Origin: an uncultured Candidatus Saccharibacteria bacterium
Lineage (GTDB): Bacteria; Patescibacteriota; Minisyncoccia; Phycocordibacterales; UBA5272
DNA length: 48,264 bases
NCBI GenBank assembly: GCA_964348675.1
Contig: CAYGDF010000001.1
Span: forward strand, 7,199 to 55,462
Direction of reading: 5' to 3'
Made by a program: the position numbers and the translations under genes. Of the stretch, positions 36,532-47,309 are shown piece after piece; the stretch's first letter is position 1, and every line of letters starts with the position of its first letter. The notes beneath the pieces were generated by a model. It was given only the letters and a program-made list of their open reading frames with translations, did no database searches and was not told the DNA's origin.

Positions 36532-37839
36532 TTACGGCGTGAGCCGGTTCATGCCACGGTAGAGGTAGGTGACTTCACGCACGTTCGGACGTCCGAGCAT
36601 GATCATCAGCAGTCGCGTCAGACCGATGCCACAGCCACCGTGCGGAGGACATCCGTAGCGGAAAAAGTTGAAGTAGTGCTCGAGCGGACCGTGGCTGAAA
36701 CCGCGGTCGGTGGCCTGAGCCTTCAGCTTTTCGTAACGATGCTCGCGCATCGCACCCGTCGTGATTTCGATTCCGTTCCACAGCAAATCGAAACTCATCG
36801 TCAGGTCAGGGCGATCTTCATGCCGCATGTGGTAGAACGCTCGCACCTCGGTCGGGTAATCGGTCACGAAAACGAATTCGTGACCGAACTCTTCCTTGAT
36901 GTAGGCGCTCAGCATGCGCTCGCCTTGTGGGTCGAGATCCTCCTTGTGGTTGATGAAGTGCCCGCGTTCCGCCAACACCTCCCGCGCCCGTGCCAACGTG
37001 ATGCGCGGGAAAGGAGTTGTCGGCACCACCACGTTGACTTGAAAGGCCTCCTTGATGGCTTCACCGTGCTTGGCGGCAACGATTGCCATCATGTGCCCGA
37101 TCCAGTTCTCCTCCACCTGCATGACGTCCTCGTGGGATTCGATCCACGAGATTTCCATGTCGACGGAAGTGAACTCGGTGTCATGCCGTGACGTCATCGA
37201 CGGGTTCGCCCGGAAAACCGGGCCGATCTCGAAGATGCGGTCGAAGCCGGCGGCCATCGCCATCTGCTTGTAGAACTGCGGCGACTGGGCGAGATTGGCT
37301 GTCCGGCCGAAGTACGGCAAGGTAAACAACTCCGCGCCGGACTCACTCGCCGTGCCCATCAGCTTCGGGGAGTGGATTTCCAGGAACCCTTCCTTCTCCC
37401 AGAATCCCCGCATGGCGATTTCCATCGTGGTTTGCACCTGGAAGATCAGCAGGTTCTTGGGCTCGCGCAAACTGAGTTGGCGCCAGTCCATCTGCTTCTC
37501 GAGCGAGGATTCCGCGGTGACCGGAAGCGGGGCTTCCGCGACACTGTGGACTTCCACGGACCCGACTTGAATCTCCAGGCCGCCCAACTTCACGTTGGGC
37601 GCTTCGACGACGAGCCCCTTCACCGTCACGGCTGAACCAGGTGTCAGTCCGCTGATGATCGATGAAAGGGCGGCGCCCTCGTCACTCTTCGGATGCACGG
37701 CCTGCACCTTTCCGGTGCGGTCTTGCAAGATGAGGAACTGCATCCGTTTCTGGTCGCGGACGGCGTCCACGAAACCTTTCACGGAAACAACTTCTCCGAG
37801 GCAGCCACTCAGGCTGCAAATCCAAGTTCTCTGTTTCAT
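36532..37839 (-). CDS. Class IIb aminoacyl-tRNA synthetase, archaeal-type AspRS-like
   Basis: N-terminal OB fold (GFVDAVRDQKRMQFLILQDRTGKVQAV). Motif 2 is GPVFRANPSMTSRHDTEFTSVDMEISW, with Asn where the fRxE Glu is usual. Motif 3 is GGCGIGLTRLLM. GGAG lies 6 nt before the ATG. About 60% GC. Confidence 0.75.
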   Translation of the reverse strand: MKQRTWICSLSGCLGEVVSVKGFVDAVRDQKRMQFLILQDRTGKVQAVHPKSDEGAALSSIISGLTPGSAVTVKGLVVEAPNVKLGGLEIQVGSVEVHSVAEAPLPVTAESSLEKQMDWRQLSLREPKNLLIFQVQTTMEIAMRGFWEKEGFLEIHSPKLMGTASESGAELFTLPYFGRTANLAQSPQFYKQMAMAAGFDRIFEIGPVFRANPSMTSRHDTEFTSVDMEISWIESHEDVMQVEENWIGHMMAIVAAKHGEAIKEAFQVNVVVPTTPFPRITLARAREVLAERGHFINHKEDLDPQGERMLSAYIKEEFGHEFVFVTDYPTEVRAFYHMRHEDRPDLTMSFDLLWNGIEITTGAMREHRYEKLKAQATDRGFSHGPLEHYFNFFRYGCPPHGGCGIGLTRLLMIMLGRPNVREVTYLYRGMNRLTP

Positions 37840-37859
37840 GACTTTCTCCGGTAACTGAA

Positions 37860-39176
37860 TTAAGGGTAGACCCGGCGACGCACCACTCGTGGGAATGGAA
37901 TAGCGTCACGGACGTGGGGGATGTTGAGCAACCAACGAATCAGCCGTTCGAGTCCCATGCCGAAGGCGATATGGGGAACGCAACCGGCGTGATGAACATC
38001 GCGGACAAACTGATACCTCGGTTCGGTGAGCTTGCCCTTTTCGTCGAGCCGCTCGTCCAGCATCTTCGGATCGTGGATTTTCTCCGCGACGCCCAACAGT
38101 TCTCCGTAGCCATTGCTGGCGATCAGATCGGCCACCATCGTCACTCGCGTGTCGTTGGGGTCAATCACGTACGGGAACGGCTCGACGGCTCGTGGTATTC
38201 CCACAATCCAGAAGGGGCTCTTGTAAAGCTTGGACAGGATTTCTTCCTCAGACGTGCTGAGGGCTTGTCCGAACTTTGCGTCGAGACCCTGCTCTTGCAG
38301 ATACTTCACGGCATCCTCGTACGAAATGCGCGGGAAGGGCGTTTTCAGCCCATCCAGGCATAACTGGGTGCCGAGCGTGCTCATGATGCCAGGGCATCGT
38401 GCCTGGCATTCTGTGGTCACGTAGCCGAGGATGTCTTCCACCAGTTTGATGATGTCCTCACGGTTCCCGAAAGCGACCTCGGCCTTGATGTGCCAGTACT
38501 CCATGAGGTGGCGCTTGCTCCGCGACTCTTCACCACGGAAGCTAGGCCCCATGTTGAAGATCCGTTCGAAGGCATGCACTCCGGCCTCCAGGTAGAAGCC
38601 GGCACACTGGGAGAGGAACAGGTTCTCATCGTGCACGTTGATCGACATCGCTGTCTTTCCGTCGTAGAGCGGTGTCGGCGTGAGGATCGGCGCATCGAAT
38701 TCCATGAAGCGGTTCTTGTAAAACCACTCACGGACGATACGCATCAACTCAGCACGAAACTGGAGAACCGCCATCACCTTCGGGTTGCGAAGATAGATGT
38801 GCCGGTAGTCGAGCATCTGGTTCGTGTGACGTTCGTCAAACGGATCGAAGTTCGACCGTGGCTGAGGTTCCAGCCGAAGCGTGGCCTTACCCAGCACCGC
38901 AAAGTTACTTGCGTGGAGTTCGTTCTCTTGCCCGTTTCGCCGAGAAAGGTTTCCGTGTATCTCGACACCCGACTCGAGCGGCACCGTTGACGCCAGGTCA
39001 AATTCATCTTCAGAAATCGAGGACTTCTGGATGACGACCTGGATGGTGCCAGTTGAGTCGGAAATATCGAGAAAGATTATTTTTCCTTGTCGCCTCCGAT
39101 GTTTGAGCCACCCCATAAGAGTAGCTGCCCCACCAGGATTCGCAGCAAGGAAGTCGGTAACAAAGAGCGTCTTCAT
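37860..39176 (-). CDS. Class IIb aminoacyl-tRNA synthetase, AsnRS-like
   Basis: OB fold (GWLKHRRRQGKIIFLDISDSTGTIQVV). Motif 2 is GPSFRGEESRSKRHLMEYWHIKAEVAF. The C-terminus is VPHIAFGMGLERLIRWLLNIPHVRDAIPFPRVVRRRVYP, an AsnRS-type ending. It lies 20 nt upstream of the AspRS-like gene. About 62% GC. Confidence 0.75.
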   Translation of the reverse strand: MKTLFVTDFLAANPGGAATLMGWLKHRRRQGKIIFLDISDSTGTIQVVIQKSSISEDEFDLASTVPLESGVEIHGNLSRRNGQENELHASNFAVLGKATLRLEPQPRSNFDPFDERHTNQMLDYRHIYLRNPKVMAVLQFRAELMRIVREWFYKNRFMEFDAPILTPTPLYDGKTAMSINVHDENLFLSQCAGFYLEAGVHAFERIFNMGPSFRGEESRSKRHLMEYWHIKAEVAFGNREDIIKLVEDILGYVTTECQARCPGIMSTLGTQLCLDGLKTPFPRISYEDAVKYLQEQGLDAKFGQALSTSEEEILSKLYKSPFWIVGIPRAVEPFPYVIDPNDTRVTMVADLIASNGYGELLGVAEKIHDPKMLDERLDEKGKLTEPRYQFVRDVHHAGCVPHIAFGMGLERLIRWLLNIPHVRDAIPFPRVVRRRVYP

Positions 39177-39769: not shown

Positions 39770-40027
39770 TTAGTTTAGTGGGTAGATTTTATTAAGTTCA
39801 GGTTCTTCGGGGTACTCAGCGTGATGCTCTTTTACGTCTTTCCAGTCTATTGCATTTATAACGGCATCACCTGTACAACCTTCGTATGGACACATTTGTA
39901 ATACATCATCCATTTCTGAAGTCATTACATGCTTAAAATTACCACTTTTATAAACTCTTTCACAGTGCATACAATACAAATAACCATTACCACTTACCTT
40001 CCCAAAAATATATTCTCTCTCATTCAT
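39770..40027 (-). CDS. Small zinc-ribbon-like protein
   Basis: CMHC ... CPYEGC (CxxC plus CxxxxC). 85 aa, low GC. Confidence 0.5.
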   Translation of the reverse strand: MNEREYIFGKVSGNGYLYCMHCERVYKSGNFKHVMTSEMDDVLQMCPYEGCTGDAVINAIDWKDVKEHHAEYPEEPELNKIYPLN

Positions 40028-40067
40028 TTTTTTAAGTATATTAAACTATCAATTTTTAATAAAAAGC

Positions 40068-40631
40068 TCACTTCTTTGATGAACTCTTCTTAGGTTCTAG
40101 GTTTTTAAAAAGTTCAGGGAACATTATAGGCATTTCTCTGTTGAAAGTAATTGTGTGCTCTTCATTAAATTCCGTAAGATCATGTTCAAGCTTTGCAACC
40201 AGTTCAGCTGTAGTTTTTCCTCTTTTTCTTTTTACCATTTCTTCCACTATAAAACCCTTCATATGTCCTCCTAGTTTGTATGCTTTTTTTATTTCATTAA
40301 TAAAAGATTTCCTATCAATTTTTAAGATGTTGTGTATTACTTCGTTTCGTTTTTTTCTATAGATATTCAGGTTGCTGTATAATTTTCGGTCAATCTTTCC
40401 TAAAAGGAAAAGTTCGTCGGAAATTCTTGCAATTTCAAAAGTAGAAAACTTACTTTTTAGTTCTGGTATTTTTTCTAAATGAGCACTAAGAACTTCCATC
40501 GCATAATTTTTAATAACGCCCTCTATTACACATGACTGTACTAAAAAGGCATCCAAATAGCGTTTATTTTTGTAGGCATTTTCAGCCATATCCACTAAAT
40601 ATCTATAGTTTTTTGAGTCTGATGTTCCCAT
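40068..40631 (-). CDS. All-helical protein with a HEPN-like Rx4H motif
   Basis: RKKRNEVIHNIL contains R-N-E-V-I-H. 187 aa, helical and charged. The family call is inference. Confidence 0.4.
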   Translation of the reverse strand: MGTSDSKNYRYLVDMAENAYKNKRYLDAFLVQSCVIEGVIKNYAMEVLSAHLEKIPELKSKFSTFEIARISDELFLLGKIDRKLYSNLNIYRKKRNEVIHNILKIDRKSFINEIKKAYKLGGHMKGFIVEEMVKRKRGKTTAELVAKLEHDLTEFNEEHTITFNREMPIMFPELFKNLEPKKSSSKK

Positions 40632-40679: not shown

Positions 40680-40707
40680 TTGACTTTTTATCTACATGTA
40701 ATATACT
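40680..40707 (+). promoter_or_regulatory. Putative sigma70-type promoter of the higB operon
   Basis: TTGACT (40680-40685), a 16-nt spacer, then TATACT (40702-40707). The imperfect palindrome cttcccactatgggag follows. Confidence 0.4.
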
Positions 40708-40749
40708 TCCCACTATGGGAGTAAATACATTTGTATCAAAACCACCCAC

Positions 40750-41040
40750 ATGATTATGCAACTAATTGGCAAAGAAATCTTAGGCACCTTCAAAAACGAG
40801 CATTCTGATGCTCAGTCGCAAATTGACTCCTGGATTTCAGAAGTTGAAGCGGCTACTTGGAGGGTCCCACAAGATGTTGGCAAGAGATTCAAGGCAGACT
40901 TCCCAGGCAATAACCAGATTATATTTGATATTTGTTGGAATAAATATCGAATATGGGTCAAAGTTACCTATAAAAGTGGAATTGTTATTGTTAAGTCAGT
41001 AGGAACTCATAAAGAGTACGATAAGTGGAAATTCAAATAA
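40750..41040 (+). CDS. higB: HigB-family type II toxin (RelE/ParE superfamily)
   Basis: FPGNNQIIFDICWNKYRIWVKVTYKSGIVIVKSVGTHKEYDKWKF matches the HigB_toxin pattern. 96 aa. Confidence 0.7.
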   Translation: MIMQLIGKEILGTFKNEHSDAQSQIDSWISEVEAATWRVPQDVGKRFKADFPGNNQIIFDICWNKYRIWVKVTYKSGIVIVKSVGTHKEYDKWKFK

Positions 41041-41044
41041 ATAT

Positions 41045-42268
41045 ATGAATGATATAAAAATAATTAAAAATCAAGAAGACTATCGTAACGCTCTCAATTT
41101 TGTCGAGCAGATTATTGATCGTGATCCAGAACCTGGAACTGTGGACTCTGATCATCTTATTCTTCTTACTGCACTCATAAAAGAGTATGAATCAAAAGCT
41201 TATCCAGAACATTTGCCTGACCCAATAGAAGCAATAAAATTTCGCATGGAACAACAAAATCTTAAACCTGCGGATCTTATACCTTACATTGGTAGTGCAG
41301 GTAGAGTTTCTGAAGTGCTTTCTGGAAAGAGACAGCTTACCCTTGATATGGTTAGGGCTCTTTCTTCAGGCTTGGGAATTCCAGCAAAAGTACTTATACA
41401 AAAACCGTCGCGAGATTTTGAATCTCAAAATTGGGATACCACGCTTGTAAAGACAATGCAGAAACGCGGTTATTTCGGCAAAAACTCTTTAAAAGATCAA
41501 AATAAATCAGAACTAATTAGTGGTTTCTTTTCTTCATTTGGACAACTCCAACCCGCCGCTTTATACCGAAAAACAAATTTTCGATCAGCACCTCGTACAG
41601 ATAATAATGCTCTACTTGCATGGGGTATTCGTGTGTTGGAGAAAGCGTCTAAAATAAAAGTTTCCACAAAGTACAAAAAGGGAACAGTTGATTTATTTTT
41701 TATGCGTGCAGCAATAAAGTTAAGTTCAAAAGATAATGGGCCTCTTCTTGTCCGTGATTATCTCGAAGAGTATGGTATTAAATTAGTTATTGAGCCACAC
41801 CTCCCTAAGACTCATCTTGATGGTGCTGTCTTGCTGTTTGATAAAGATAATCCAGTGATAGGTCTTACAATCCGTCATGACCGACCAGATAATTTTTGGT
41901 TTACGTTAATGCATGAACTTGCTCACGTAGCGCTTCACTACGAGGATGACGTTGAATCCTTTTATGATGAAGGACTTCAAGATAAAGATGGTGTGGGAGA
42001 TGACCCTAAAGAAAAGGAAGCTGATCTTCTAGCAGAAGAGGCTATTCTTCCAAAAGGTAAATGGGAGACTAGTGCGGCAAGAACAACCCCGAATCAGTTT
42101 TCTACTGAAGACCTTGCAAATGAGTTGGGGATACAGACGGCTGTCATTGCAGGAATGATTCGATTTAAACATCAAAATTTTTACTATTTAAATAAGATAG
42201 TAAATGATAAAAACTTAACCATTAAAAAATATTTTAAAAATGACTTTTTAGAAGAAAAACATGACTAA
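41045..42268 (+). CDS. HigA-like XRE HTH fused to an ImmA/IrrE (M78) metallopeptidase domain
   Basis: An N-terminal HigA-type helix bundle plus HTH (LKPADLIPYIGSAGRVSEVLSGKRQLTLDMVRAL). The C-terminal HExxH is FTLMHELAHVALH. Confidence 0.75.
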   Translation: MNDIKIIKNQEDYRNALNFVEQIIDRDPEPGTVDSDHLILLTALIKEYESKAYPEHLPDPIEAIKFRMEQQNLKPADLIPYIGSAGRVSEVLSGKRQLTLDMVRALSSGLGIPAKVLIQKPSRDFESQNWDTTLVKTMQKRGYFGKNSLKDQNKSELISGFFSSFGQLQPAALYRKTNFRSAPRTDNNALLAWGIRVLEKASKIKVSTKYKKGTVDLFFMRAAIKLSSKDNGPLLVRDYLEEYGIKLVIEPHLPKTHLDGAVLLFDKDNPVIGLTIRHDRPDNFWFTLMHELAHVALHYEDDVESFYDEGLQDKDGVGDDPKEKEADLLAEEAILPKGKWETSAARTTPNQFSTEDLANELGIQTAVIAGMIRFKHQNFYYLNKIVNDKNLTIKKYFKNDFLEEKHD

Positions 42269-43394
42269 TATAATTAAACCTTATGTGCCTGTATTACGTT
42301 GGAGAGCTGCTGAGATGGCAGCAATGGAAAAACTGCTTCCTAACGATAGATCAAATGTTACACCCTTGATCGAGTTCATAATGCCAGCACCCTCAGTTGA
42401 TAAAAAGAATCGTAAAAAAATTTTAAAAACACCTAAAGAGAAGTTTTTAGAGACCCTGCCCAATGTGGCAAAAGATCTATCAAAGTCTTGCGGACAAAGC
42501 CCAGTATTCATTGATGTCCATCTCCTTGATGGTGACATTCGGTCATCTTCCCTTAATCAAATTCTCTCCTCATCAAGTGAACTTAATATATTCTCCATTC
42601 CTGTTACATATGTGATTCCAGTAACAAGTACAGACGCTGATACTGAAACGCGTTCGACTGCAATTAGTTATGCAAAGTCGAGTGGACATGGTTTATGTAT
42701 TCGCATAGATAATTCGCATCTTTCGGAGCCTGATTTAGCTTCTCATTTACTTCATTTTATTAAGAGTAACAATCTCGACATTAAAAATACTGACTTACTT
42801 GTTGATCTGCGATTCATTCCTGATATAGATACCAAAAAAGTAATTGATGAAATTGAAAAACTCCCAAATCTAAAAGAGTGGCGCTCCTTTATTGTGTCTG
42901 GAGGAGTTTTCCCTAAGGATTTGACTGAGTTCGCCGCCGGTGCAGCCTATTCACTTGATCGACTAGATTGGAAATTTTGGAATACAATACGTGAATCAAA
43001 AATAACTCGTGTCCCATCTTTCTCTGACTATACAATTCAGCACCCATTCTATGAATATGTGGCAGCTATTGGCAGTGCAAGTATAAGATATACGGCTGAT
43101 GACCAATGTTGGATTTTCAGAGGAACGAAGCCAGGATTAATTAATCGTAAAACTCAAGAAAAGGGCCCTGGGCGAGAGCAATATATTGGGCACGCAAAAA
43201 CTCTTGTAAAACGAGATTTTTACAAGGGAGATGGCTATAGTTTTGGTGATGCAGAAATTACGAGAATCGCTGACCCCTTAAATACAAAACCGGGTAGTCC
43301 TACTACATGGCTTACGATTGGTATTAACCACCATATAACGCTAGCTGCACGTCAGGCCTCCAACCTTCACGAGAACTCTGAAGAACAGATCTAA
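42261..43394 (+). CDS. Beta_protein (PF14350)/sce7725-like protein (recall-level)
   Basis: The N-terminus YVPVLRWRAAEMAAMEKL...VTPLIEF resembles the Beta_protein family start. It overlaps the upstream gene by 8 nt, so it belongs to the same operon. Confidence 0.4.
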   Translation: MTNIIKPYVPVLRWRAAEMAAMEKLLPNDRSNVTPLIEFIMPAPSVDKKNRKKILKTPKEKFLETLPNVAKDLSKSCGQSPVFIDVHLLDGDIRSSSLNQILSSSSELNIFSIPVTYVIPVTSTDADTETRSTAISYAKSSGHGLCIRIDNSHLSEPDLASHLLHFIKSNNLDIKNTDLLVDLRFIPDIDTKKVIDEIEKLPNLKEWRSFIVSGGVFPKDLTEFAAGAAYSLDRLDWKFWNTIRESKITRVPSFSDYTIQHPFYEYVAAIGSASIRYTADDQCWIFRGTKPGLINRKTQEKGPGREQYIGHAKTLVKRDFYKGDGYSFGDAEITRIADPLNTKPGSPTTWLTIGINHHITLAARQASNLHENSEEQI

Positions 43395-43929
43395 CATGTT
43401 TTTTTAGTGGTTCTAACTCTACTGATTCTGCAATCCTTGCATAGATAACCTCACGAGGTTTTGAACGGATACCATCCGCCTTACCTATGCTTTCTAGTAA
43501 ATCAAGTGCTTCATGTCTCCACAGAAGTCTAGCGATTGATTTATTGTCTTGAGCTGGATTATTTTTAGCCTCTCGAATTGTATTGAAGAAAATTCCACCG
43601 TTCTCACTAGTATGAGCTATTTCAACACCCCACCAATCAGGGATAATTTTAAATGCATCAACAAAGTGTCTACTGCCAACAACGAGGGTCACTTTATCAA
43701 AAACAGAATTATATGCCTCTCTTTGTTCAGGTAAGCGAAGTAGGGTGTCACGGTCGCTTTTGATTTCAAATCCGTGCAGTACTCCGTTTACAACAGCAAC
43801 ATCTATTCTCGCAGCTCCATGACAAAGACCCAACTCCGGAATTACACGATAGTCTGACTGCGCCACATACTCTTCTTTTAGTTTGCTTACTAGAGCTTCT
43901 CTTATTACTGTGTCGTTTGTTTGATACAT
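43324..43929 (-). CDS. PD-(D/E)xK-type nuclease-fold protein, sce7726/MmcB-like (recall-level)
   Basis: IPELGLCHGAARIDVAVVNGVLHGFEIKSDRD carries a D...E-x-K signature. Its 3' end overlaps the convergent gene by 71 nt. Confidence 0.45.
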   Translation of the reverse strand: MYQTNDTVIREALVSKLKEEYVAQSDYRVIPELGLCHGAARIDVAVVNGVLHGFEIKSDRDTLLRLPEQREAYNSVFDKVTLVVGSRHFVDAFKIIPDWWGVEIAHTSENGGIFFNTIREAKNNPAQDNKSIARLLWRHEALDLLESIGKADGIRSKPREVIYARIAESVELEPLKKHVRSVLQSSREGWRPDVQLALYGG

Positions 43930-44635: not shown

Positions 44636-44658
44636 GTACAAGGAGTCTCGGTCATAAA
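44636..44658. repeat. Direct repeat, left boundary of the methyltransferase/HNH cassette
   Basis: GTACAAGGAGTCTCGGTCATAAA matches 46935..46957 (GTACAAGGAGTCTCGGTCACAAA) at 22/23. Confidence 0.8.
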
Positions 44659-44681: not shown

Positions 44682-45785
44682 TTATTTCCCAGATTTTCTT
44701 CTATTGTCCTCTTTACAGAGCATTTTACAATTTTCTGCTACAGTTTTCCCACCTATGTGCCATGGGTCAATATGGTCTGCTTCCATCTCTGAAAACTCAA
44801 AATGGTTTTTACAATCCGAACAAATACCATTTTGTCTTTCGTATGCTTCGCGTCTCATATTTGGATTAAATGCACGAATAGAAAGATAACTTTCTTTTCT
44901 AGTTAACACATATGGATAAATCCCTGATTTTTTAGTCACGTCTTCGTCTTGCATTAGTGTTTTTATTTCTTTTTCTAATTCATCTCCGTCAAATTTTTTA
45001 TCCTTAAATTGATTATAGAGTTCACCCCAATTCACATTTGTCATTTCCTTACGATAAAAAGGAAATGTTTTTCTTACCCAATGAATAACATTTTGAAAAT
45101 ATTTCCATAGTTCGTCCGCATTTTCATCATGCTGATGTTTTGCCATATATTCTTCTACTTGCTCATTATTTATCCACGAAAGTGCTGTTTCTAGATATTC
45201 TTGACGAATTGGGGAGCCTGACACCAACTGACCGCCATCATTTGCCAAAAGATACCCAGCGCAATTTGTTTTACTAAACTTTAGTTTTGCATCTGAGAGC
45301 CATGGGCCAGTGTATACCGCATTTCTTAACTCTTGATTTGTTAATTGTTCTCCTGCAATATTAATAATTTTAAACCAATCAAGTTTTTCTTTATCAGTTC
45401 CTTCACAGTGGTAAATCATGAGTTCATAATTCAAAATTTGCTCTTGTTCTTCTTTGGTTAGATTGTGAAACATTGCAATTCTTCCATTAAATTCAATTGA
45501 AAAATCACCATTTACAAATTGAGCAATACTGATTGTTCGCTGTTGTCCGTCGAGTACTTCAAAATTACCGTCTTCTTTTTTTACCCAGTACATTACATTC
45601 AAAGGAAAATCGTTTTTTATAGTGCGAATAACCTCATCGCGTTGTTTGCCACTGTATACAAATTCTCGTTGATATTTTGGACGAATATCTAATTTACCAC
45701 CAAAAGCACTTACACCTTCTTCGGCGCTGTCTTTATAGTCTTTGACTACATCAGAAACTTTTATTGTGTGTAATTTTATTTCCAT
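44682..45785 (-). CDS. DUF262 (ParB/GmrSD-N-like) domain fused to an HNH endonuclease
   Basis: The DUF262 signature is LDGQQRT. The C-terminal HNH is CSDCKNHFEFSEMEADHIDPWHIGGKTVAENCKMLCKEDNRRK. Confidence 0.75.
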   Translation of the reverse strand: MEIKLHTIKVSDVVKDYKDSAEEGVSAFGGKLDIRPKYQREFVYSGKQRDEVIRTIKNDFPLNVMYWVKKEDGNFEVLDGQQRTISIAQFVNGDFSIEFNGRIAMFHNLTKEEQEQILNYELMIYHCEGTDKEKLDWFKIINIAGEQLTNQELRNAVYTGPWLSDAKLKFSKTNCAGYLLANDGGQLVSGSPIRQEYLETALSWINNEQVEEYMAKHQHDENADELWKYFQNVIHWVRKTFPFYRKEMTNVNWGELYNQFKDKKFDGDELEKEIKTLMQDEDVTKKSGIYPYVLTRKESYLSIRAFNPNMRREAYERQNGICSDCKNHFEFSEMEADHIDPWHIGGKTVAENCKMLCKEDNRRKSGK

Positions 45786-45786
45786 A

Positions 45787-46881
45787 CTATCTTTGTGGTT
45801 TTTTATTTTTAATTAAAATACGTGCATAAGTATTTTTAGATTTTATTAAAGGGCGAGCATCTTTAAATCCTTCTAATTTAGGTATTCCTACTATTTCAGC
45901 GTCATAACCAGCACTTGCTGACATTCCTAAAATTTGGAATTGATTGGGGTTATACTTATCAATAAAAGTAATGGGGACACCCATTACACCATTAAAATCC
46001 GTGGGTATGTCTTGAACTTTTGAAACTTCAATAGCCTCATAATTATCGTACGAAGGATACTCTTTAGTTGTATATTTTTTGTAAAGAGTAATATCTTGTT
46101 TATGCTTTTCAACTTCAAGGTTTGTAAACCAGCACGACGTTGAAACTCTTGCTATTTTGTTTCCATTTTCATTAACATGGTGATATTGTTCCCAATCATC
46201 TGGCACTACAAAAAACATTCCCACATTGAAATTGGTATAACCAGTACGGAGTTTATCATCTTTGATTAATTTAAAAATTTCTTTATAAGTTATTGCGTTT
46301 GTATTTCCTATAATAAGAAATTTTTTATTATATTCTACTAACTGTGTCATATATTCACGAAATAATGAAAACGGTGGATTAGTAATGATAATATTTGCTT
46401 CTTTTAGTAATTCTATACTCTCTTTACTTCTAAAATCTCCATCACCCTCCAGTGGTGACCACTCGTTATTTTTGTTTGCCTTGAGTTGCTCGGCGATATC
46501 ACGCAAATCAAAAGCACCATCACCGTCTAAATCATCAACTTCGTTGATAATAAATTTATTGGCAGTTGCTTTTGGGCGACCTTTTAGCGTACTGAGAGTT
46601 TTATCGTCTCCAAATAATCCTAGTTGAGTATTGGCAATAGGTGATGGCTTGTAACTTGTAGCGATAAGTTTCTTTAAACCAAGAGCGTTAAAATTCGAAG
46701 CAAAGTACTTGAAGAAATTACTTTCAAATGGGTCGTCGCAATTACAATACACCACTTTCCCACGAAATTGCTCTTTATAATGTTTTAACTCTTTTTCAAT
46801 ATCAACAAGTTGGGTATAGAACTCGTCTTTCTTGGCCTTATTGGCTTTATGTAAATTTGAGTTTGATGATGTGTTTGCCAT
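45787..46881 (-). CDS. N6-adenine DNA methyltransferase, EcoRI-methylase-like family
   Basis: KKDEFYTQ, CNCDDP and the catalytic motif ITNPPFS. Its stop is 1 nt from the DUF262-HNH start. Confidence 0.75.
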   Translation of the reverse strand: MANTSSNSNLHKANKAKKDEFYTQLVDIEKELKHYKEQFRGKVVYCNCDDPFESNFFKYFASNFNALGLKKLIATSYKPSPIANTQLGLFGDDKTLSTLKGRPKATANKFIINEVDDLDGDGAFDLRDIAEQLKANKNNEWSPLEGDGDFRSKESIELLKEANIIITNPPFSLFREYMTQLVEYNKKFLIIGNTNAITYKEIFKLIKDDKLRTGYTNFNVGMFFVVPDDWEQYHHVNENGNKIARVSTSCWFTNLEVEKHKQDITLYKKYTTKEYPSYDNYEAIEVSKVQDIPTDFNGVMGVPITFIDKYNPNQFQILGMSASAGYDAEIVGIPKLEGFKDARPLIKSKNTYARILIKNKKPQR

Positions 46882-46934
46882 TTTATTTTGCGGTTACACT
46901 TGTCGGACACTTGAACTATATTCAATTTGGCTGG

Positions 46935-46957
46935 GGTACAAGGAGTCTCGGTCACAA
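46935..46957. repeat. Direct repeat, right boundary of the methyltransferase/HNH cassette; overlaps a copy of the tRNA-Gln 3' end
   Basis: See 44636..44658. In addition, GCTGGGGTACAAGGA at 46929..46943 is identical to 47108..47122, which is the tRNA-Gln 3' end plus 1 nt. Confidence 0.8.
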
Positions 46958-47078: not shown

Positions 47079-47108
47079 CGAAAAGAAATAAGCCTTGCTT
47101 TTTCTTTG

Positions 47109-47179
47109 CTGGGGTACAAGGACTCGAACCTCGATACTCAGGACCAAAACCTGATGTCCTACCATTAGACGATACCCCA
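47109..47179 (-). tRNA. tRNA-Gln (anticodon UUG)
   Basis: Reverse complement: TGGGGTA TC GTCT AATGGTA GGAC A TCAGG TTTTGGT CCTGA GTAT CGAGG TTCGAGT CCTTG TACCCCA G. It forms a cloverleaf with anticodon TTG. Confidence 0.88.
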
Positions 47180-47275
47180 ATATTATTTCTATTCTGTGAG
47201 CAGTTTATGTTTTGAGAGTTTGGTCCTGCTCAGGACCGCTTTCTTTATGTCTCGCAGGCTCGACGCTGATATCCC

Positions 47276-47298
47276 ACCATTAGACGATACCCCAATAT
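47276..47298 (-). pseudogene. Duplicated 5' fragment of tRNA-Gln
   Basis: The exact 23-mer ACCATTAGACGATACCCCAATAT is shared with 47161..47183. No matching anticodon arm, T arm or 3' acceptor strand lies downstream. Confidence 0.7.
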
Positions 47299-47309
47299 GT
47301 TTTTTGTTT

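Follow-up and report, generated by a model that had tools for sequence, protein, structure and literature searches.

The locus described here lies in the genome of an uncultured Candidatus Saccharibacteria bacterium, on a 48,264-nt stretch of contig CAYGDF010000001.1 that we call the window and whose numbering is used for all positions. It comprises an operon of the PD-λ-2 family, with genes A, B and C encoding a HigB-family protein, a HigA-like helix-turn-helix (HTH) protein fused to an ImmA/IrrE metallopeptidase of the M78 type and a Beta-family protein, respectively, and a convergent gene, cII, whose family partners Beta in the gop-β-cII system of phage P4. We are highly confident of the identity of these parts and of the four genes forming one unit, and a function in defence, by analogy with the characterized relatives, is likely. 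On balance, we read the locus as a self-contained four-gene anti-phage cassette; the specific roles proposed below for Beta and cII are distinctly more tentative.

Identity of the four gene products

All four open reading frames (ORFs) are real and lie where a first-pass annotation, made from the letters of the window alone, had placed them: the forward-strand genes are tightly packed, with a 4-nt gap between A and B (41041-44) and an 8-nt overlap between B and C (42261-68), and a gene for a 201-amino-acid (aa) protein faces them. Gene A (40750..41040, forward strand) encodes a 96-aa HigB-family protein (RelE fold), the type of toxin proposed at first pass (PF09907, 1.1e-20; PADLOC PD-Lambda-2_A, 8e-34). 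Its true start may be the ATG at 40756; the PADLOC alignment begins at residue 3. A single-sequence search of the PDB with this protein gave no significant match and a family profile was needed, which retrieved E. coli HigB (5ifg_A/5ycl_B, 6e-13).

Gene B (41045..42268, forward strand) encodes a 407-aa protein that matches the PADLOC PD-Lambda-2_B model over residues 1-398 (9.6e-135). Its residues 7-118 (41063..41398), which include an Xre-type HTH, match almost the entire chain of E. coli HigA in a profile search (5ifg_B/5ycl_A, 5e-13), and Pfam gives a weak HTH_3 match at residues 65-114. Residues 242-369 (41768..42151) constitute the M78 peptidase domain (PF06114, 2.7e-9), with the HELAH zinc motif at 41912-41926; the motif is invariant in homologues, in agreement with the HTH-M78 architecture initially recognized, and H290, E291 and H294 of the motif, as well as E323, are invariant in 42 four-gene cassettes. 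The protein has more than 4700 homologues, the closest of which (76-84% identity) come from metagenomes of Patescibacteria, or candidate phyla radiation (CPR), bacteria.

HigB and HigA homologues are thus encoded side by side (5ifg_A and 5ifg_B, about 6e-13 each). Since A and residues 7-118 of B match both chains of the same E. coli K-12 HigB-HigA complexes (5IFG and 5YCL), binding of A to the N-terminal domain of B is very probable. The locus is nonetheless not a canonical two-protein HigBA, because the antitoxin is fused to an M78 region of about 290 aa. Note that residues 5-130 of B (41057-41434) are 51% identical to a stand-alone regulator found in the immunity region of many Stx1a/Stx2-converting phages, which suggests that the fusion was derived from an ordinary phage-borne HigA.

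Gene C (42261..43394, forward strand) encodes a 377-aa Beta-family protein homologous to P4 β (PF14350, 1.5e-57; PADLOC PD-Lambda-2_C, 1e-43). A likeness to the Beta/sce7725 family had been noticed at its N-terminus. The Beta half of that assignment holds, and more broadly than proposed, the PF14350 match spanning residues 8-362, i.e. the whole protein and not the N-terminus alone; the sce7725 half does not, as the NCBIfam sce7725 model gave no match at E ≤ 0.1 for the window Beta, nor at E ≤ 0.01 for P4 β, Rac β or the C protein of E. coli PD-λ-2. Since no Beta protein tested matches sce7725, the conserved pair is Beta/sce7726 and not, as first suggested, sce7725/sce7726: the sce7726 partner was correctly named, the other is a Beta protein, and the pair is really the β/cII pair of P4 gop-β-cII.

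The AlphaFold2 (AF2) model of Beta (predicted local distance difference test score, pLDDT, 84.8; predicted template-modeling score, pTM, 0.88) has a TIM-barrel-like α/β fold, and its comparison with gp33 of Gordonia phage Powerball gives a template-modeling (TM) score of 0.76. Several weak fold matches are xylose-isomerase-like and include sugar epimerases and AP/UV endonuclease family 2; deriving an activity from these TIM-barrel matches was rejected, as they are too weak and too generic for an assignment. Four acidic or histidine residues, E18, D182, D256 and H358, are invariant among Beta proteins and would fit an enzyme or a metal-binding scaffold.

The cII gene (43324..43929, reverse strand) encodes a 201-aa protein of the sce7726 family, as had been perceived (sce7726_fam, NF033832, 2.8e-49, 167.5 bits against a cut-off of 70; PADLOC 'cll', 4.5e-28). 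According to precomputed annotations, the protein family is PF26915 (Phage_P4_cII), of which the local Pfam library had no model, and RefSeq labels P4 cII 'sce7726 family protein' and P4 β 'beta family protein'. With the AF2 model of cII (pLDDT 87.9), Foldseek retrieved 3dnx (9e-6), followed at weak E-values by SfsA, a tRNA-splicing endonuclease, NucS, YaeQ and XPF. Residues E32, D43, E55 and K57, whose codons lie within 43759-43836, are invariant from P4 to actinophages and Bacillus phages; D43, E55 and K57 make up the D...ExK signature already spotted at first pass and are invariant family-wide. cII is accordingly predicted, from a restriction-endonuclease-like α/β core and the D...(D/E)xK motif, to belong to the PD-(D/E)xK nuclease superfamily. 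When the cII or the Beta alignment was used as a profile against PDB sequences, nothing significant was retrieved.

Conservation of the four-gene unit

To examine the conservation of this arrangement, 80 loci from species-representative genomes were searched with profiles of all four proteins and grouped by means of a neighbor-joining tree of the M78 protein. In 76 of the 80 loci, the M78 gene is immediately preceded by a HigB homologue; Beta follows the M78 gene directly, in the same A-B-C order, in 49, and a convergent cII gene overlaps the 3' end of Beta in 44. The distribution follows the tree. In the M78 clade of the window, the four genes are found together in 44/44 loci that have at least 1.8 kb of downstream sequence, and every exception stops at a contig edge; the four-gene arrangement pointed out in the first-pass annotation is strictly conserved in the clade. 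A second clade, which includes the E. coli loci, is limited to HigB-M78-Beta. A third group of about 35 loci (within L045-L080) has HigB-M78 only, with varied defence genes downstream, including HsdR, HsdM, a NACHT protein and a cyclase. HigB plus HigA::M78 alone hence appears to be a separate, common module; such two-gene loci (e.g. L058, L070, L076 and L065) often stand immediately 5' of type I restriction-modification (R-M) subunits (HsdR, HsdM) or of a NACHT/STAND gene.

The hosts of the four-gene clade comprise Patescibacteria/CPR lineages, Planctomycetota, Acidobacteriota, Bacteroidota, Chloroflexota, Nitrospirota, Proteobacteria and others. Across them the flanks of the cassette are not conserved: any flanking family is common to at most 4 of 45 loci, and a search of the flanks for a fifth conserved gene found none. 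The pairwise identities of M78, Beta and cII are correlated (r = 0.62-0.78), with r = 0.78 for M78 and cII. In one four-gene cassette (L004:2281-2580), HigB is broken by a single in-frame TGA at an invariant Trp codon (W37 in the window protein), which points either to a recently inactivated gene or to the use of TGA as a sense codon in that host. The variable flanks, the correlated identities and the origin of this apparent HigB loss in one TGA codon all favor a single unit.

The antisense overlap and the β/cII pair in other contexts

According to the ORF coordinates, the 3' ends of the Beta and cII genes overlap by 71 nt in the window (43324..43394), where transcripts of the two strands would be mutually antisense. 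No terminator-like site was predicted between the two stop codons, nor was a bidirectional terminator within the overlap; on the reverse strand, a terminator-like hairpin (43165-43179) lies about 145 nt 3' of the cII stop codon, within the Beta coding sequence. Because no forward-strand terminator was predicted from the Beta stop codon to 44379, transcripts of the operon may run antisense through the whole of cII.

This overlap is a general property of the pair. It was found in 46 of the 48 β/cII pairs first collected, with a length of 26-101 nt (mode, 50 nt), the pairs without overlap being that of P4, in which a 27-nt gap separates the genes, and that involving a Beta fragment in L053. The overlap length equals 2 mod 3 in all 46 overlapping pairs, and the same phase was observed in 71 of 74 pairs from phage contigs, so that the two antisense genes keep a conserved frame relative to each other.

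The 74 pairs come from a cII-centered scan of IMG/VR, performed with alignment A6 since the diverse alignment A5 was too divergent, which yielded 80 loci, 78 of them informative. A convergent, overlapping Beta gene faces cII in 74 of these 78 phage or prophage loci; among the 74, no co-directional gene lies upstream of Beta in 43, HigB is found in none, and an M78 gene precedes Beta in a few. Bare pairs occur in E. coli Rac-SA53, Mycolicibacterium phage Mycofy1 and Gordonia phage Powerball: they have the same convergent 3' overlap and the same phase as the window pair, but lack HigB and M78. In the literature searched, we found no report of a bare β/cII pair as a defence system or of a defence test of one.

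Where Beta does have an M78 partner, the latter takes several forms, namely a short stand-alone M78 protein (L122, L135), an HTH-M78 protein without HigB (L180, L085, L084) or HigB with HigA::M78, and this recurrence suggests a functional link between M78 and Beta. In L084 (Acinetobacter nosocomialis plasmid pAC1530, NZ_CP045561.1, ~68.1-70.6 kb), an ImmA/IrrE gene is followed by an N-terminal Beta fragment, an IS30-family transposase gene and blaNDM-1, and the paper describing the plasmid reports an sce7726 gene on the opposite side of Tn125; the Beta gene of an M78-Beta-cII locus thus seems to have been the insertion site of the NDM-1 transposon.

Relationship to PD-λ-2 and gop-β-cII

PD-λ-2 was isolated from E. 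coli ECOR42 by functional selection for phage defence (Vassallo 2022, PMC9519451). Of its components, A resembles HigB, B combines a HigA-like HTH with a peptidase, and C is related to a P4 antitoxin. Overexpression of B by itself is toxic and is countered by A, defence against λvir needs C, and the system acts by abortive infection (PMC9519451). The toxic and neutralizing roles are thus reversed with respect to classical HigBA. In the window operon, these three families recur in identical order and equally tightly packed, and A, B and C pass the corresponding PADLOC models, B over its full length. For three of its four genes, the locus is therefore an already named system, listed in PADLOC and DefenseFinder, and the impression that its arrangement had not been characterized is right only of the four genes together, which are undescribed. 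Indeed, PD-λ-2 as validated and as modeled in PADLOC consists of three genes only, whereas the window adds the convergent cII gene.

The E. coli-type loci were located by way of an IMG/VR relative (L091). Genes for HigB, ImmA/IrrE and a beta family protein are present on three chromosomes, among them that of strain C, whose proteins score 97, 619 and 544 bits, respectively, against the PADLOC models for PD-Lambda-2 components A to C. The gene downstream of Beta varies and encodes SIR2, a DUF3223 protein or a hypothetical protein. These loci form a separate M78 clade, and the window Beta is about 23% identical to E. coli C. A six-frame HMMER search with the speed filters off detected no cII in the E. 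coli-type loci, even at E < 1. Likewise, the validated insert spans 228989-232396 and its genes 229385-232009 (PMC9519451): since at most 396 bp remain beyond either gene end, the validated clone cannot hold a cII gene (~600 bp). The ECOR42-type locus itself was not found in M78 protein searches of plasmid and phage collections, and distant blastn searches of 5,426 E. coli genomes with the window cassette and an Enterobacterales relative (L066) gave no matches.

The second relative, gop-β-cII of P4, is a validated, TA-like anti-λ and anti-P1 system in which Gop is toxic without β (Rousset 2022, PMC9122126) and whose trigger is the phage gene orf184 (bioRxiv 10.1101/2023.04.06.535777). It shares with the window the Beta and cII families and the convergent layout (gop→β→ ←cII in P4). 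It differs in that P4 cII has 264 aa and is separated from β by the 27-nt gap, with an annotated terminator, whereas the 201-aa cII of the window overlaps Beta, and the PADLOC 'beta' model of P4 matches the window Beta at only 5.8e-10. The PADLOC gop model had no match among the eight ORFs of the genomic island that holds the cassette; HigB and HigA::M78 occupy the place upstream of Beta.

Three features remain new, as we found none of them in the literature searched: an architecture of four genes that is strictly conserved, the lack of this architecture in the validated form, and the frame-locked β/cII overlap.

Genomic context of the cassette

The cassette is situated in an AT-rich island (~39.7-47.1 kb, 33-40% GC) bordered by a stretch of 57-59% GC on one side and by a tRNA-Gln gene on the other. 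About 43 nt 5' of the HigB start, a promoter-like element, TTGACT-16 nt-TATACT (40680..40707, forward strand), is the best sigma-70-type match of the region (10/12); as the total count of such matches does not exceed the expectation from shuffled sequence, it is a candidate only. Two small genes diverge from the operon (39770-40631, reverse strand) and encode an 85-aa CxxC-type zinc-ribbon-like protein and a 187-aa protein without family match; the two genes accompany the cassette in two other metagenome contigs (L193 and L194) and are not conserved in related four-gene loci. The 57-59% GC block, which stands out from the ~37% of the rest of the window, contains two tandem paralogues of a class II Asp/Asn-type tRNA synthetase (36532-39176, reverse strand; tRNA-synt_2 and oligonucleotide-binding (OB) anticodon-binding domains); these two genes may have been acquired horizontally.

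Directly downstream of the cassette, the island carries a type II R-M pair, composed of a GmrSD_N+HNH restriction endonuclease (44682-45785) and an EcoRI-like methyltransferase (45787-46881). This pair is flanked by exact 19-nt direct repeats (44636-44654 and 46936-46954; chance expectation, 0). A longer repeat copy (46927-46947) shares 90% identity with 47105-47125, a segment reaching into the 3' end of the tRNA-Gln gene (47108-47179, reverse strand), and 47266-47308 is a 43-nt partial copy of the 5' half of that gene. The repeats and the partial copy look like attachment-type (att) scars left by serial insertion of islands at the tRNA gene; no integrase gene was seen.

Proposed mode of action and its limits

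Transposing what is established for the E. coli and P4 relatives to the window, we propose the following scheme. In the uninfected cell, A would bind the HigA domain of B, as homology to the chains of the E. coli HigB-HigA complex suggests, and A and B would neutralize each other, neutralization of B by A having been shown only for the E. coli homologue; the HTH of B would autoregulate the operon. Beta would be the shared element through which phage infection is linked to the toxic outputs, i.e. a sensor or adaptor, a role suggested by its being required in E. coli PD-λ-2 (PMC9519451) and by its neutralizing Gop in P4 (PMC9122126). Infection would then release the HigB/M78 module and lead to cell arrest and abortive infection, as shown for the E. 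coli homologue. As for cII, its strict co-occurrence with the operon, its intact catalytic motif and the gene layout point to a Beta-dependent nuclease arm or DNA sensor, whose expression might be coupled to that of the operon by the frame-locked antisense 3' overlap.

Several points weigh against this scheme and, to some extent, against the four-gene cassette as such. The structural neighbors of Beta in the PDB are uninformative, with TM-scores of only 0.33-0.5, and the nuclease activity of cII is a prediction only. The P4 gene cII took its original name from a lysogeny-related plaque phenotype. The promoter and terminator predictions are not above chance. The E. coli homologues are distant, their Beta proteins being 21-23% identical to that of the window, which scores 148 bits on the PADLOC PD-Lambda-2_C model against 544 for E. 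coli C; yet it is from these homologues that all functional statements are transferred by analogy. Above all, the validated E. coli PD-λ-2 defends without any cII, so cII is not essential to the PD-λ-2 mechanism in general and its role in the window could be regulatory or redundant.

Alternative explanations

The last point is also central to the main alternative, namely that Beta and cII by themselves constitute an ancient two-gene defence core, made of a sensor and a nuclease, and that HigB-HigA::M78 is an add-on that regulates this core or enforces host dependence, like Gop in P4. The phage and prophage loci speak for it: Beta and cII face each other there almost invariably, without HigB and in many cases without any co-directional upstream gene, three genomes hold the bare pair, and differing M78 front-ends recur beside Beta. 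However, E. coli PD-λ-2 functions without cII, HigB-HigA::M78 is itself widespread without Beta (the ~35 loci mentioned above), and the literature searched contains no defence test of the bare pair. We regard this explanation as the strongest competitor of the four-gene cassette, though an unlikely one.

Another reading is a toxin-antitoxin (TA) addiction module that keeps the mobile island in place and does not act against phages in its native host. In its favor, A and the N-terminal part of B are homologous to classical type II HigBA, the cassette lies in a horizontally acquired AT-rich island, and the two-gene HigB-HigA::M78 is found inside other mobile or defence gene clusters. We nevertheless hold it to be improbable: the closest characterized relatives were isolated by selecting for phage defence and depend on Beta, which is not a TA component (PMC9519451), and four co-inherited genes, two of which encode enzyme-like proteins, are more than plasmid or island addiction needs.

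It is very improbable that the HTH-M78 protein is an RmrA antitoxin of a variable toxin, as in the RosmerTA-type systems with which the first-pass annotation had compared the locus. RosmerTA (RmrT/RmrA), like CapP/CapH and ImmA/ImmR, has in common with B an M78 domain and an Xre-type HTH in a defence or mobile context, and several weak PADLOC matches to RmrA (best, 6e-7) and to capP (2e-8) were obtained. The likeness is, however, restricted to the peptidase domain, and the partner genes of these systems are others, with no Beta or cII. The RmrA models cover only residues ~219-365 of B with at most ~27 bits (best, 26.9), compared with 447.9 bits for the full-length match to PD-Lambda-2_B. The roles are also the opposite of those in RosmerTA, as toxicity in the E. 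coli homologue stems from the HTH-M78 protein and rescue from its HigB-like partner (PMC9519451). Since RmrA models match the M78 domain only, at 6e-7 or worse, the RosmerTA assignment was rejected; the broader suggestion of an anti-phage module made together with it was correct, and its idea that a single peptidase might control several effectors is a hypothesis.

Finally, that cII is an unrelated neighbor abutting the operon, either a stand-alone nuclease or a phage remnant, might be argued from its occurrence alone in some lytic phages (Mx4, Bacillus phage Edson) and from its absence in E. coli PD-λ-2, but this explanation is effectively refuted by the locus census, given the 44/44 co-occurrence in the clade, an overlap phase conserved across many phyla, flanks that vary while the four genes stay, and the M78-cII identity correlation.

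Implications

With the four-gene anti-phage cassette as the preferred reading, the window locus and its 44 relatives link, through a conserved β/cII module, two systems, PD-λ-2 and gop-β-cII, that are both validated against λ and are catalogued as unrelated entries with a "Beta" protein in common. The E. coli PD-λ-2 studied so far is then a reduced, three-gene form, and annotation tools seem to under-call the system, leaving cII as an orphan. If the mechanistic proposal proved wrong, the result would still stand as the re-annotation of a known system. The census also documents a multi-gene cassette of the abortive-infection type in CPR bacteria and at least ten other phyla.

More speculatively, β/cII may be an ancient two-gene immune core present in prophages and in many phyla, to which interchangeable front-ends are attached (Gop, stand-alone or HTH-fused M78 proteins, or HigB-HigA::M78). 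PD-λ-2 and gop-β-cII would then be members of one super-family, of which the four-gene form, abundant in CPR/Patescibacteria, would be the fuller version: Beta would control both a cII nuclease effector and a TA-like arm, and the antisense overlap would set the relative expression of the two. In either case, the four-gene loci give genetic handles on the function of β.

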